A stretch of DNA of 64,000 nucleotides. It comes from Sulfurovum sp. Lineage in GTDB: Bacteria; Campylobacterota; Campylobacteria; Campylobacterales; Sulfurovaceae. The translations under genes were made by a program, and so were the position numbers. Below the pieces are notes generated by a model. That model searched no databases. It had not been told where the DNA came from and saw only the letters and a program-made list of their open reading frames with translations. Location: contig JALSJI010000033.1 in NCBI GenBank assembly GCA_026989435.1, forward strand, positions 2,560-66,559. The letters run 5' to 3'. Each line of letters opens with the position of its first letter. Within the stretch, counting starts at the first letter, position 1. Positions 25,637 to 56,580 of this stretch are shown piece after piece.

Positions 25637-25658
25637 ATCAACACAAAAGGGGAAAAAG

Positions 25659-26813
25659 ATGGAAGAATTTGAAATAGATATTATCGAAACAAAATGTCAA
25701 ACAAACGGTGCAAAGATTAAAGCCATTGGTGTCGGCGGCGGCGGCGGCAATATGATTAATCACATGATTACTGAAGGCATACACACCATAGATCTCATCG
25801 TAGCCAATACTGATGCACAGGCACTCGAATCGTCTCTTGCACCGTTTAAGATGCAGCTGGGAGTCAATGCCACAAGAGGGTTGGGTGCAGGAATGATGCC
25901 GGAAAAAGGTAGAGAGGCTGCTTTAGAGAGTTTTGATGATATCAAAGAGATGCTAGATGGTGCAGATATCGTCTTTATCTCTGCAGGACTTGGAGGAGGT
26001 ACCGGTACCGGAGCTGCTCCAATTATTGCCCAAGCTGCCAAAGAGGTAGGTGCATTGACCGTGGCTATTGTCACAAGTCCTTTTAAATTTGAAGGGCGTA
26101 AACGTACCAAACTTGCAAAAGAGGGTTTAGAAGAGCTTAAACGTGAGAGTGATTCAATCATTGTAGTACCAAATGAAAAACTTCTCTCCATTGTCGAAAA
26201 AAACCTTGGAATCAAAGAGAGCTTCAGAATGGTTGATGATATTCTAGCTCAAGCAGTAGGAGGTATCTCCAAAGTTATTCTTTCGCATGGTGACAATGAT
26301 ATTAACCTTGACTTTGCCGACGTAAAAACCGTCATGTCTCATCGTGGTCTTGCACTCATGGGTGCCGGTTATGCCGTAGGAGAAAATGCCGCATATGATG
26401 CAGCAAAAGCAGCTATTGAGTCACCGCTTCTTGACAATATTTCTATCGATGGAGCAATGGGCGTACTGGTACACTTTGATATTCACCCAAATTATCCTAT
26501 TATGGAAATTGGTGAAGCAATGAATATTGTAGAAGAGAGTGCCGACGAGAATGCTTCCGTCATTTTTGGTACCACTACCAATGAAAATATGGAAGTTGAT
26601 GAAGTAAAAATCACTATTATTGCAACCGGATTTGAAGACAAAAATGCTATTGGTGATCCTACACCTGTAAAAACACAAACTACCATGATGACAGCAAACC
26701 AAAATAGCATCAATACACTCCGATCTGCAAATAAAATGGTAGTAGGCGGTTACAACGGTGAAAATGAGGATATCTTAGAGGTTCCTACTTTCCTAAGAAA
26801 ACAGATGGACTAA
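25659..26813 (+). CDS. ftsZ: Cell division protein FtsZ
   Basis: GVGGGGGN, GGGTGTG, NLDFAD, LEVPTFLRKQMD. Confidence 0.99.
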   Translation: MEEFEIDIIETKCQTNGAKIKAIGVGGGGGNMINHMITEGIHTIDLIVANTDAQALESSLAPFKMQLGVNATRGLGAGMMPEKGREAALESFDDIKEMLDGADIVFISAGLGGGTGTGAAPIIAQAAKEVGALTVAIVTSPFKFEGRKRTKLAKEGLEELKRESDSIIVVPNEKLLSIVEKNLGIKESFRMVDDILAQAVGGISKVILSHGDNDINLDFADVKTVMSHRGLALMGAGYAVGENAAYDAAKAAIESPLLDNISIDGAMGVLVHFDIHPNYPIMEIGEAMNIVEESADENASVIFGTTTNENMEVDEVKITIIATGFEDKNAIGDPTPVKTQTTMMTANQNSINTLRSANKMVVGGYNGENEDILEVPTFLRKQMD

Positions 26814-37073: not shown

Positions 37074-38543
37074 CTATAGAAAGTCTAACATCTCTCCTTT
37101 AATAGACTCTTTTTCAACCACGTTATGATGAATAACCGGCTTTAAAAATAGTTCAGATATGCTATACGGTACTTTTACATTGCAGTATTCGCTGACCCAT
37201 GCAAGTGCTTCTATATCACCGGATACTCCCTCTTTTCCCAAAGCCTTTGCTACGGCAGGAGAGAACTTTGTCCATTCTGCTGTAGAGTAGATGACTGTCT
37301 TTAGCCGTTTTTCCCTTAACTCTTCGTATGCTCCCATACATGTGGCCGTATGTGTATCCATCATATAACCGCTCTTCGCATACTTCCCAATGACTCTGTA
37401 ACAGCTGTCATCATCCATAAAAGATGCATCAAAGTCCTCTCTAAGCATAGAGAGTTCACTCCGAGTAAGAACAAATTTTCCATCTCTATCCAAACTCTCC
37501 ATCAACTCTTTAGTTCGCATCTCGCCAAACTTATCAAAAAGTATACGCTCAATATTTGAACTTTTCAAAATATCCATTGCAGGAGACTCTGTCCGTATCA
37601 AGCTTCTTGTTGTTAAATCATATACCCCTGTTTGAATCCAATCAGTAAGAATATTATTGATATTAGAAGAGATCAAGATTTTTTCTATTGGAAGACCTGC
37701 TTTTTTTGCATAATATGCACCCAAAGCATTGCCAAAGTTTCCACTAGGAACCACAAGATATACCCTCTCACCCATAGCGATCTCATCTTTTCGGACTAAC
37801 TCCAAATACGCATGTATATGATAGATGATTTGAAAAATGATACGACCGAAATTCACTGAATTTGCCGCTGTTAATTTAATACCGCGCTCTCGTAGTTCTG
37901 ACGTAAAATCATCTGATGAGAGTAATCTTTTTAGCGCACTCTGTGTATCATCAAAATTTCCTTTAACACCTATTACTTTTAAATTAGGTGCATCTTCTGT
38001 AACCATCTGCAGCTCTTGTACATCTGAAGTACCCCCCTTTGGATACAAACAGACCACCCTCACATTTTTCTTATTTTTAAAGGTCTCAAGTGTTGCAGGA
38101 CCTGTATCCCCGCTTGTAGCTGCCATGACAAGATACTCTTCACCTCTCTGTTCTGCCAGTCTACTCAATATGTATCCAAAAGGCTGCAGTGCCATATCTT
38201 TAAAAGCTCGCGTTGGACCATGATAAAGCTCCGAGACAAAACAGTCATTCTCAATTTTACATAGAGGTACAGGATTAAGAGGATCATCAAATCTTTCATA
38301 TCGCTCTAATGCTTTGATAAGTATCTCTTCTTCTATATCAATCTCAAAGGTTTTCAAAAAGTCCAATGCCAATACTTTATAACTGCTCTTTAAATGCCTA
38401 TCTAAAAACGCATTGCCGATATCCGGAATACTTTCTGGTACATAGAGTCCACCAAAACTAGCACTCGGGTTTAAAATAGCATCTGAAAAAGAGACACTTT
38501 GCACCCTGCTGCCATCATTTCCACGTGTTTCAATAAATTGCAT
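37074..38543 (-). CDS. thrC: Threonine synthase
   Basis: ELYHGPTRAFKDMAL, ATSGDTG, NSVNFGR, VPSGNFGN. Confidence 0.97.
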   Translation of the reverse strand: MQFIETRGNDGSRVQSVSFSDAILNPSASFGGLYVPESIPDIGNAFLDRHLKSSYKVLALDFLKTFEIDIEEEILIKALERYERFDDPLNPVPLCKIENDCFVSELYHGPTRAFKDMALQPFGYILSRLAEQRGEEYLVMAATSGDTGPATLETFKNKKNVRVVCLYPKGGTSDVQELQMVTEDAPNLKVIGVKGNFDDTQSALKRLLSSDDFTSELRERGIKLTAANSVNFGRIIFQIIYHIHAYLELVRKDEIAMGERVYLVVPSGNFGNALGAYYAKKAGLPIEKILISSNINNILTDWIQTGVYDLTTRSLIRTESPAMDILKSSNIERILFDKFGEMRTKELMESLDRDGKFVLTRSELSMLREDFDASFMDDDSCYRVIGKYAKSGYMMDTHTATCMGAYEELREKRLKTVIYSTAEWTKFSPAVAKALGKEGVSGDIEALAWVSEYCNVKVPYSISELFLKPVIHHNVVEKESIKGEMLDFL

Positions 38544-38639
38544 TCATTTCTCCTGTACCCCTAGTATACAAATTCGTTATATTATAACCAAAAAAACTGA
38601 CAAAATTTGCTATAGCATCTTGTTGGTTATTTTGAGTTA

Positions 38640-38795
38640 GAAAAAAGGAGTAATGTGGGTATTTAGCATATTATAAGATGAAGGCAATCCATACATACCG
38701 ATAATGTATAGTTAGGGAAAAAGAATGTCAATATATACAAACTGCTTCACCTCTTAACATACTAAATACAAACCTTATACAGCAAAAAACTGCAT
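38640..38795 (-). ncRNA. Candidate long-hairpin small RNA
   Basis: Extended -10 TGCTATGAT (38802-38810); 5' 6-bp hairpin; ~40-bp G-U-rich stem across 38659-38769 with CU-rich loop; ends in CUCCUUUUUU. Confidence 0.55.
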
Positions 38796-38857
38796 GAAGT
38801 AATCATAGCAAAAGTTTCCTTAAAGTATTACTACATTATTACCAAAATATTTCTTTT

Positions 38858-39709
38858 TTATAACTCGATACAGGTTCCTACGCCTGAACTTGTTAAAATC
38901 TCTAACAAAAGAGAGTGCTCTATACGACCATCTATAATATGTGCCTTTTTAACACCGCCTCTTAAAGCCTCGATACAGGCATCTACTTTTGGCACCATAC
39001 CTCCTTGTATCGTACCGTCATTTTTAAGTGCTTCTGTTTTTTCAATACTAAGATTAGTAATAAGATTCATCTCTTTATCAAGCACACCCGGAGTATCTGT
39101 CAGAAACAACACCTTTCTTGCCTTCATCGCTACTGCAACCTTGGATGCTGTCAAATCAGCATTGATGTTAAATCCCGGATGTCCCATAGTACTGCTACTT
39201 GCAATAGGAGCAATTACGGGAATCGCACCATCTTCAATGATATTATTGACAATCTCTGGGTTAATATATTCGATATTTCCTGTATAACCAAAATGTTCAA
39301 AATCTTTTGCTACCCCCTTTAAAAACCCACCATCTTTTCCGGAAATACCTATAGCCTTGGAGCCATGATTGTCCAAAAGAGAGACTATCTCTTTATTAAT
39401 TTGACCAGAAAGCACCATCTCTACTACATGCATTATCTCTTTGGTAGTTACACGTTGACCCTTTACAAATTTTGTCTCTATACCTAACTGTGTAAGCATA
39501 TCCGTAATACGCTTGCCCCCTCCGTGCACCACGATAGGTTTCATACCGACTAGATGTAACAGTACAATATCCTGTGCAAACTGCTCTTTAAGATGATAGC
39601 TCGTCTGTGCAGAACCACCATATTTGATTACGATTTTTTCATTGCTAAAACGTTTGATAAAAGGCAGTGCCTCCAGTAGTGTCTTTACAACCGACATATT
39701 ATCACGCAT
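38858..39709 (-). CDS. argB: Acetylglutamate kinase
   Basis: VIKYGGSA, VHGGG, NINAD, GGMVPK. Confidence 0.97.
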   Translation of the reverse strand: MRDNMSVVKTLLEALPFIKRFSNEKIVIKYGGSAQTSYHLKEQFAQDIVLLHLVGMKPIVVHGGGKRITDMLTQLGIETKFVKGQRVTTKEIMHVVEMVLSGQINKEIVSLLDNHGSKAIGISGKDGGFLKGVAKDFEHFGYTGNIEYINPEIVNNIIEDGAIPVIAPIASSSTMGHPGFNINADLTASKVAVAMKARKVLFLTDTPGVLDKEMNLITNLSIEKTEALKNDGTIQGGMVPKVDACIEALRGGVKKAHIIDGRIEHSLLLEILTSSGVGTCIEL

Positions 39710-40622
39710 TCTGTTTCCCTTCAATATACTTGTCTATTTCTGTTATGAACTCTTTTTCAATCTCTAATTTTAACTTCATTTCGGAGATAGGCAACTTAAA
39801 CCCATGCATCTTCACTCTGTCTTTCGAGGTACAAAGAATTGATGTTGCACCATACGCTTTCAAAAACTGTTTTAAAACATCTTCATGAAAATAGGCATGA
39901 TCTTTATAATATACTTTATGCACTACCCCTTTTGGTAAATAGGGCTCTAGTCGCAAAGGATTTGAAATCGCTGTTACCAGTACCATCTTTGGTGTAATAT
40001 TCTCTATCTTCACCTTTCGTATGAAGGTTTCATTCTCTTTTGCAATAAAATCTGCTTTTTTTCGTGTTGAAAAAAATTCTCTAAAGGGACCGGCAGGAAA
40101 TGTAAAATAGTTTTCAACTCTGCAAGGCTCAAGCAAAATATCAAATTTTGCTATATCGACCCTGTTAAATCCATCATCGAGTATCACACACCTTGCTCCA
40201 TGATCTTTGGCAAATGCAATAGCCGTATCTCTATTTTCACTCACAACAACCGATGCATTTGGAAGAGAGAGTGCCATAAGCATCGCTTCATCCCCAGCCG
40301 TATAAACATCTGCTACTACCCTACCGTGTATACTCACTACCTCAAGTCCTCTACTTTTACGTCCATATCCGCGAGAGATCACAAAAACATCTCTATAACG
40401 CAGTGCCAATGCTATCACAAAAGGGGTCTTACCTGACCCTCCTACAATCAGATTACCTACCGAAACAATAGGAACATCATACTCTCTAAGGGATGTAAAT
40501 CTTCTACGCAAATACATGACGCTACCATAGACAAAAGAGAAAGGAAGCAAGAGAAAAATAGCAATCCAATGATACGGTTTAGGATGAAAAAACATCTCTT
40601 GTATAAAGGTTCTCATGAACAC
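39702..40622 (-). CDS. lpxK: Tetraacyldisaccharide 4'-kinase
   Basis: SVGNLIVGGSGKTP, SRGYG, GDEA, ILDDGF. Confidence 0.95.
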   Translation of the reverse strand: MFMRTFIQEMFFHPKPYHWIAIFLLLPFSFVYGSVMYLRRRFTSLREYDVPIVSVGNLIVGGSGKTPFVIALALRYRDVFVISRGYGRKSRGLEVVSIHGRVVADVYTAGDEAMLMALSLPNASVVVSENRDTAIAFAKDHGARCVILDDGFNRVDIAKFDILLEPCRVENYFTFPAGPFREFFSTRKKADFIAKENETFIRKVKIENITPKMVLVTAISNPLRLEPYLPKGVVHKVYYKDHAYFHEDVLKQFLKAYGATSILCTSKDRVKMHGFKLPISEMKLKLEIEKEFITEIDKYIEGKQNA

Positions 40623-56091: not shown

Positions 56092-56159
56092 CTAAAATTT
56101 CTTTTTTGCCTGATTATAGCAGAATGTAGTTAATAATGCAGGTATCTGCATACTCACAA

Positions 56160-56580
56160 AAGGTGCAACGATAAGCCGGGTTTTGTCGTGGGTAGTTATT
56201 TATCTAGGCGTATGGTTGCCCATACGCTCAAGCGAAGTATGAATGCTGATTAAACAGCTTTGCAAAGCTTATTACCATATACTTCTTGCTGCGGGAAGGG
56301 TTTACCTAGCTAGCCATGTTACCACAGCTACTGGTGGGCTTTTACCCCACCGTTTCACCCTTTACCATAGGAAGGTCTCCTGCCAAAGAGACAAAGCCCC
56401 TTTGGCATTCCTCTCACTCAAGCTTCGCCTTAAGGCGAGAACTTAAGTTATGGTTTTCTACTCTCTGTTGCACTTGCCCTCAGATTACTCTGGCCATCTG
56501 TTAGATGGATCCCTGCTTTGCTTGCAGCCCGGACTTTCCTCTCGTAGCAAAATGCTACCAGCAACTACCTGTTGCACCTT
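56160..56580 (-). ncRNA. rnpB: RNase P RNA (type A)
   Basis: GAGGAAAGTCCGGGC and ACAAAACCCGGCTTA conserved regions; P1 AAGGTGCAAC/GTTGCACCTT; promoter TGGTATAAT at 56588-56596. Confidence 0.97.

Follow-up and report, generated by a model that had tools for sequence, protein, structure and literature searches.

The 316-nt spacer between argB and thrC, two minus-strand genes of a hydrothermal-vent Sulfurovum metagenome-assembled genome (MAG), contains a long hairpin that is under selection as RNA and that seems to represent a so far undescribed RNA family restricted to Sulfurovum and close relatives. The spacer lies in a 64,000-nt stretch of contig JALSJI010000033.1 (assembly GCA_026989435.1, positions 2,560 to 66,559, here called the window), to the numbering of which all positions given below without a contig or locus name refer. 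In the relatives the hairpin is found behind an aptamer of the c-di-GMP-I class, which senses cyclic di-GMP (c-di-GMP), and an intrinsic terminator, and the window copy, in which both are missing, is a deletion variant of this riboswitch, terminator and hairpin unit. The best reading of these data, to which we would assign about an even chance, is that of an independent small non-coding RNA gene, predicted to extend from 38795 to about 38636 on the minus strand, which is gated by the riboswitch in the relatives, is ungated here, and acts through a CU-rich loop directed against ribosome-binding sites (RBS).

A conserved hairpin RNA between argB and thrC

When folded as RNA, the minus strand of 38635-38800 reaches −52 kcal/mol, versus −25.8 ± 3.6 kcal/mol in 200 dinucleotide shuffles, none of which is as good (z −7.3), while the plus strand of the same stretch folds poorly (−22.5 kcal/mol, z 0.02) because 11 of the 41 pairs are G-U. 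The hairpin (38659..38769, minus strand) has the base GUAUUUAG/CUAAAUAC and 41 pairs, the 11 G-U pairs included, with two 1-nt bulges. Its apical loop UUGACAUUCUUUUUCCCUAACUAUAC (38706..38731, minus strand), unpaired in the predicted folds, holds the CU-rich CAUUCUUUUUCCCU, and the 13-nt core of the loop, ACAUUCUUUUUCC (38728-38716, minus strand), is invariant among 28 aligned sequences. The core is complementary to GGAAAAAGAAUGU. The complement of the loop, AGGGAAAAAGAAUG, reads as a generic ribosome-binding site with AUG, in an ideal succession of Shine-Dalgarno (SD) sequence, spacer and AUG. A CU-rich 3′ tail, CCACAUUACUCCUUUUUUCUAAC (38636..38658, minus strand), which includes CAUUACUCCUUUUUU at 38655-38641, follows the stem; in related copies AACGAUWCUYUUCU or other CU-rich runs are found immediately 3′ of the hairpin.

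The element is preceded on the minus strand by an extended −10 box, TGCTATGAT (38802..38810), which is taken as the RNA's own promoter with a predicted +1 at A38795. In each of the 27 aligned copies a TAnnnT box, often with TG before it, keeps a constant distance to the 5′ hairpin. The −10 box is preceded at close range by three direct repeats of 11-nt period, GGTAATAA-TGT-AGTAATAC-T-TTAAGGAAAC (38811..38843, minus strand), which probably form an operator for a DNA-binding regulator. All copies have two or three such repeats, and their layout is kept in the alignment of the relatives, as GGTAATAC-TGT-GGTAATAC in locus L029 and as TTAAGKWA units in other copies, and GTAATA-N5-GTAATA has one further occurrence in the rest of the genome. 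The transcript would begin with a small 5′ terminal hairpin, AUGCAG-UUUUUUG-CUGUAU (38777..38795, minus strand, predicted fold), which corresponds to CAUACAG/CUGUAU in relatives and to the compensatory variant GUACAG/CUGUAC in locus L086.

Relatives of the element were gathered by using thrC as an anchor (80 related loci), the loop as a search pattern, and a covariance model, R1, built from 14 copies with the window copy among them. The score of R1 against the window copy (82.7 bits, E 2e-15) is therefore in part the product of how the model was built; independent copies outside the building set score 27-109 bits. With R1, 41 of 116 Sulfurovum species genomes, about a third of those searched, were found to have the hairpin, always as a single copy, and further copies were found in one genome of a neighbouring genus (loci L086/L110) as well as in 16 metagenome contigs. 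As a member of the family, the window copy shows a hairpin of ~100-110 nt with the GUAUUUAG/CUAAAUAC base and, in the loop, the core ACAUUCUUUU(U)CC, which is invariant in 28/28 aligned copies across three loop variants; it is also syntenic, being placed beside argB and thrC, in the same orientation as these genes and downstream of the conserved promoter and 5′ hairpin. For this element, a scan of the window at Rfam gathering scores and a permissive scan of the spacer (E up to 10) gave only chance matches far below the cut-offs, and no description of the hairpin RNA was found in Rfam 15 or in the literature.

Selection for the fold itself was estimated on two alignments. In a plain MAFFT alignment of 14 copies, which is not fitted to structure, RNAalifold identified 35 pairs; 13 of them exhibit compensatory double changes as opposed to 5.9 ± 1.5, a count that none of 500 column shuffles reached, and 91.5% of cells are paired versus 39-48% when the partners are slid by 1-3 columns. 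When 39 distinct copies were aligned to the model, an alignment that leans towards the model's structure, double changes were present in 27 of 32 pairs, and in 213 cells versus 72 ± 7 in shuffles. In sequence, the copies agree at the stem base (GUAUUUAG/CUAAAUAC) and in the loop, and the middle of the stem is variable and compensating. In all 27 distinct homologous copies the thrC strand gives the better fold (mean −31.9 kcal/mol vs −19.1 kcal/mol for the opposite strand), with 185 G-U pairs in 1078 on the former and 65 in 924 on the latter. Taken together, these values point to a hairpin that is maintained as RNA.

A first-pass annotation, made from the sequence alone, had proposed the RNA with its own promoter, its 5′ hairpin, a hairpin of about 40 bp with G-U pairs that work on the minus strand only, the CU-rich loop and tail, and a separate TATAAT for thrC. 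All of these are present, and the promoter box, the 5′ hairpin, the loop core and the thrC box proved to be conserved. The same annotation had called for an Rfam scan and for a search for covariation, and had named a decayed repeat as the contrary outcome: no known family matches, compensatory pairs are in excess as just described, and the element is single-copy in its own genome.

The element always adjoins argB and thrC on their strand, in three arrangements: argB, element, thrC; argB, element, a gene for a secreted DUF5122 beta-propeller protein, thrC; or argB, the DUF5122 gene, element, thrC. In all three a separate TATAAT box lies between the hairpin and the start codon of the downstream gene. 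In the window this is the TATAAT at 38586-38581 of the extended −10 box of thrC, TGGTTATAAT (38581..38590, minus strand), which lies outside the RNA unit and marks its downstream limit. The box is kept both in genomes that have the element and in those Sulfurovum genomes without it, in which the argB-thrC spacer measures only 44-121 nt. The separate promoters and the occurrence of the element before two unrelated genes favour, on genomic context, a transcription unit of its own. As to the DUF5122 gene (~400 aa; 1242-2447 in locus L047, 880-2082 in locus L036), it is variably present between argB and thrC, and absent from the window.

A loop-like sequence was also observed outside the family: at ~1480-1530 of locus L130 (G206:C3), a 24/26 copy of the loop (TTGACATTCTTTTTCCCTAAGTATCA) is found in a 760-nt intergenic region with neither a long hairpin nor an aptamer, in a genome that has a normal element as well. 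Possibly it represents a sibling RNA that shares the seed.

The c-di-GMP-I riboswitch of the relatives and its absence from the window

In the 27-copy alignment, the relatives have ~125 nt between the CUGUAU of the 5′ hairpin and the long hairpin, and these correspond to a c-di-GMP-I aptamer and an intrinsic terminator. The Rfam c-di-GMP-I models (RF01051 / RF03167) match at or above the gathering score in 58 loci of relatives, some copies being fetched twice, with 36.8-60.7 bits. Every copy in the relatives with a readable upstream flank has such a match above the gathering score, with the exception of that of genome G166, in which several substitutions have weakened the aptamer (30.1 bits versus a cut-off of 35) and the hairpin and loop are intact (84.8 bits). 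The P1 helix of the aptamer, UAUUG/CAAUA, covaries, being UACAG/CUGUA in locus L086. The aptamer ends ~55 nt before the long hairpin, and in the interval a short hairpin, the sequence of which varies, precedes UUUUUCUUCUAUU; the hairpin and T run were called terminator-like in both of the two relatives scanned. In the usual form the long hairpin, of ~35-42 bp, is found 10-17 nt past this intrinsic terminator. No clear antiterminator was recognized in the relatives; an A-rich tract able to pair with the U run of the terminator coincides in part with CAAUA, the 3′ strand of P1.

In the window, the spacer yields no c-di-GMP-I match, even at E up to 10, and no expression platform, be it a terminator or a sequestered SD sequence, is found after the position of the aptamer. 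At the deletion junction (38770..38777, minus strand) only AAGGUUU separates CUGUAU from the long hairpin. Thus, the promoter, the repeats, the 5′ hairpin, the long hairpin and the CU-rich tail are kept and the ~125 nt of aptamer and terminator are missing, which makes the window copy the only one of ~55 that is wholly without an aptamer. The junction sequence has no match in the metagenome contig collection. The short form is not an artefact of the assembly, since an independent Logan contig of the source run spans 38575-39100 with 0 differences, bridging the whole element and the junction.

The genome of the window has four further c-di-GMP-I aptamers, all before secreted or lipoprotein genes. 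Two of them are in tandem, 153 nt apart, before a lipoprotein gene (G000:C8:3641-3871, loci L139/L140), and single ones are located on contigs C4 and C72. In two lineages of the relatives, the aptamer in the orthologous position is the c-di-GMP-I-GGC variant (RF03167; 2121-2195 in locus L030 and 2360-2434 in locus L254), so that ligand specificity may differ within the hairpin RNA family.

Proposed function, candidate targets and alternative explanations

In the mechanism that we propose, the conserved promoter of the relatives would drive a transcript with five successive parts, namely the 5′ hairpin, the c-di-GMP-I aptamer, the intrinsic terminator, the long hairpin with its invariant CU-rich loop, and the CU-rich tail. 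Given this usual order, the hairpin RNA would be made only upon read-through of the riboswitch-controlled terminator. In the genome of the window, a clean deletion of aptamer and terminator would leave the same promoter to produce the hairpin RNA free of c-di-GMP control, presumably constitutively, and with moderate confidence we regard the window copy as a constitutive, sensor-less allele. The single-stranded loop ACAUUCUUUUUCC, perhaps with the help of the tail, would then pair with the ribosome-binding site and start codon of one or more mRNAs and block their translation, and the long duplex could be cut by RNase III. A gene for RNase III is present in the genome and Hfq was not found in it, a combination that fits an analogy with base-pairing RNAs known from Campylobacterota. 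The retention of the hairpin beside the weak aptamer of G166 suggests that the hairpin is selected on its own. For the complete circuit, in which c-di-GMP acts through the riboswitch on a trans-acting base-pairing small RNA that silences one or more mRNAs, and of which this genome would carry the sensor-less constitutive allele, we are more tentative, and would place it somewhat short of an even chance.

Several observations weigh against this proposal, most of them from the search for targets. Contiguous complementarity to the loop of at least 10 nt is found at 91 sites of the genome, versus a mean of 109 for shuffled loops, and the loop pairs with 24 of 1511 start regions at −16.8 kcal/mol or better, versus 5-62 for composition-matched shuffled loops. 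The best individual candidates are not conserved: the start region of a phosphomannomutase-like gene is the best of the genome (−22.4 kcal/mol) and is not conserved in the element-bearing genomes, while argB reaches −22 kcal/mol in the window and −4.7 to −15 kcal/mol in 16 other element-bearing loci, so that both were rejected. The most promising lead so far is a comEA-like DNA-uptake gene, the start region of which, GGAAAAAGAATGT (G000:C44:11056-11071, locus L177), matches the complement of the invariant loop core over 13 nt without a mismatch, covers both the SD sequence and the AUG, and is the longest match at a start codon in the genome; of the genomes that have the element, 9 of 12 keep the 13-bp match, but so do 5 of 17 of those that lack it. 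An invariant 13-nt loop that has no invariant RNA partner would fit a protein-binding site as well. Finally, no terminator-like site was called in 38300-39100, and hence none after the long hairpin, which leaves the RNA without a defined 3′ end and makes read-through into thrC possible, and the runs found to contain the window sequence include no RNA run, only a DNA metagenome, possibly the source of the window.

The argB ribosome-binding region of the window, GUAUAUUGAAGGGAAACAGAAUG (39707-39735, minus strand), closely resembles the complement of the loop, a likeness that is not kept in the relatives. Pairing of the loop with the four other c-di-GMP aptamers of the genome was also considered and discarded, the duplexes being weak (−9 to −11 kcal/mol).

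An explanation that we consider unlikely, though deserving of attention, is that the element is a cis-acting leader, or a long expression platform, that controls the next gene (thrC or the DUF5122 gene) by read-through, with the long hairpin as a second terminator, a processing site or a stabiliser. The possible read-through into thrC would agree with such a role, as would the position of the element in some relatives directly before the secreted DUF5122 gene, which is the kind of target typical of c-di-GMP riboswitches, and the secreted or lipoprotein genes behind the other four aptamers of the genome. There is also a precedent in Bc1, where a c-di-GMP-I aptamer with a long platform is followed by a first terminator and, a few tens of nt later, by a second strong hairpin (PMC11218506). 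However, the second hairpin of Bc1 is a typical terminator before the regulated gene, whereas that of Sulfurovum has no adjoining U run, carries the invariant 13-nt core and is separated from the next gene by the promoter of the latter. A terminator or stabiliser would leave the invariant loop unexplained, the downstream gene always has its own TATAAT, and the thrC promoter is the same where the element is missing. Moreover, the element precedes two unrelated genes in different genomes, its loop is not specifically complementary to thrC starts (that of the window ranks 61st of 1511 start regions, and those of relatives differ), and the hairpin is retained in a copy with no aptamer at all.

It is likewise improbable, in our estimate, that the RNA serves to bind a protein or some other factor, with the invariant loop on its long rigid stem acting as a sponge or scaffold. 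This would account for a loop core that is invariant across ~55 copies while the rest drifts, and for the lack of an equally conserved complementary RNA site: a search with the 19-mer complement of the loop (up to 2 mismatches, 250 genomes of the family) returned only the element and scattered starts of unrelated genes. On the other hand, no candidate protein is known or encoded beside the element, and the composition of loop and tail is exactly anti-SD plus anti-AUG, as in base-pairing RNAs of the same phylum. In the relatives the attached aptamer might, in addition, hold c-di-GMP, as proposed for merRNA of Bdellovibrio bacteriovorus, a non-coding RNA with a c-di-GMP-I riboswitch and no conserved open reading frame (ORF) behind it, for which the role of a c-di-GMP reservoir was put forward (PMC3627812). 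The full-length element of the relatives is, like merRNA, a riboswitch-containing non-coding RNA. They differ in that no terminator-gated effector hairpin is described for merRNA, while the conserved downstream hairpin of Sulfurovum survives without an aptamer in the window, a copy to which the reservoir idea is inapplicable for that very reason.

Compared with the small RNA gene that we favour, the window copy might instead be the non-functional relic of a disabled riboswitch unit that has not yet decayed. Its status as the only copy wholly without an aptamer and the failure to find its junction among metagenome contigs are what such a relic would lead one to expect. We nevertheless rate it as quite improbable. 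No other copy has a hairpin as stable or as well paired as that of the window (−41.9 to −44.2 kcal/mol over the folded hairpin stretches), the window copy has kept an intact loop, promoter, set of upstream repeats and 5′ hairpin, and the weakened aptamer of G166 goes with an intact hairpin and loop.

The first-pass annotation had singled out the ftsZ leader, to which the loop is complementary over 10 contiguous nt. The match, GGGAAAAAGA at 25650-25659, does exist; it covers the SD sequence, ends on the A of the ATG, the first base of the start codon, and gives a predicted duplex of −16.8 kcal/mol. Its specificity did not hold up. ftsZ ranks 24th of the 1511 start regions, at an energy that shuffled loops reach on 5-62 regions, and contiguous matches of this length are, as said above, no more numerous than for shuffled loops, which makes a dedicated repressor of ftsZ translation very doubtful.

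A role of the element as DNA, as a cruciform, a miniature transposon or decayed repeat, or a recombination site, is hardly credible, in spite of the long inverted repeat and the variable argB-thrC distance across genomes (44 to 2337 nt): no genome searched, that of the window included, has a second copy, in 27/27 copies the G-U pairs confine good pairing to one strand, and the element lies behind a conserved promoter and riboswitch on that strand.

Other identities were rejected outright. A repeat, miniature inverted-repeat transposable element or repetitive extragenic palindrome is inconsistent with the self match as the only one in the genome and with the one model match per genome in 41 genomes. 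For 6S RNA, no RF00013 match is present in the genome (87% complete), and the hairpin has a terminal loop and no internal bubble. An intrinsic terminator of argB can be set aside as none was called in the region, the U6 run is 13 nt beyond the stem, and the promoter, with the riboswitch in relatives, stands between argB and the hairpin. A small protein or type I toxin does not agree with a 1-nt indel in the loop core between loop types, nor with stem indels that are not multiples of three, and the small ORF has 10 codons in the window as compared with open or different frames in locus L029. Lastly, the loop could be read as a sigma-70 promoter (TTGACA-17-TACATT); the whole spacer of that putative promoter is invariant and the match is no better than in shuffles.

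Related systems and the surrounding locus

RepG and NikS of Helicobacter pylori are reportedly small RNAs with CU-rich loops that act independently of Hfq. With these, and with CJnc190 of Campylobacter jejuni, the Sulfurovum RNA has in common the phylum and a C/U-rich loop, predicted to be single-stranded, that would face a purine-rich RBS. CJnc190 matures when RNase III cuts an intramolecular duplex, and it represses ptmG by way of a G-rich RBS (PMC8687705). On the other side, there is no similarity in sequence or in Rfam assignment to any of the three, the stem is much longer here (~41 bp), the loop complements a generic SD-spacer-AUG rather than a G-repeat, and the element is coupled to a riboswitch in the relatives. 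By analogy, then, the CU-rich-loop small RNAs of Helicobacter and Campylobacter would be the closest in mechanism, without homology.

With respect to gating, an adenosylcobalamin (AdoCbl) riboswitch is said to control EutX/Rli55, of which EutX sequesters a protein, and the S-adenosylmethionine (SAM) riboswitch RNAs SreA and SreB are reported to act in trans. The logic is alike in that aptamer and terminator decide whether a downstream non-coding effector RNA is made; the systems differ in ligand (c-di-GMP here), in phylum and in effector, here a long hairpin whose loop is directed against the RBS. The Vc2 c-di-GMP-I riboswitch of Vibrio cholerae is reported to control the abundance of a small RNA (bioRxiv 10.1101/617340). 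That small RNA is located upstream of the riboswitch, has its end there, and is affected in its stability, whereas the candidate effector of Sulfurovum is located downstream of the terminator. A conserved effector hairpin combined with a c-di-GMP-I aptamer and a terminator is found in none of the systems compared.

To our knowledge, nearly all described c-di-GMP riboswitches control, in cis, the protein gene that follows them, and we know of almost nothing on the small RNAs of non-pathogenic deep-sea Campylobacterota, to which the present element would add a regulatory RNA family. The family is well defined, by a covariance model, by support from covariation and by a fixed genomic place. If the proposed circuit is true, c-di-GMP would be linked to post-transcriptional control in trans, which would amount to a new output mode of c-di-GMP riboswitches and a new RNA family. 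The aptamer-less copy of the window and the weakened aptamer of G166 may be regarded as natural experiments that suggest a function of the hairpin of its own.

As to the locus, the downstream neighbour of the element, thrC (threonine synthase; 37074..38543, minus strand), was assigned from its ORF and translation, and has relatives of 61-78% identity in 80 genomes. The upstream neighbour, argB (acetylglutamate kinase; 38858..39724, minus strand), was also assigned from its ORF and translation, with tblastn matches in the relatives' loci; its start is likely the ATG at 39709. At the thrC promoter (38570-38604), the summed contig depth in the source metagenome rises up to 259 versus ~12; short contigs from other organisms match there, and the peak fits a promoter sequence common to co-occurring Sulfurovum strains. 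Elsewhere in the window, the only Rfam match at the gathering score is an RNase P RNA of bacterial class A at 56156-56580 on the minus strand (254 bits).

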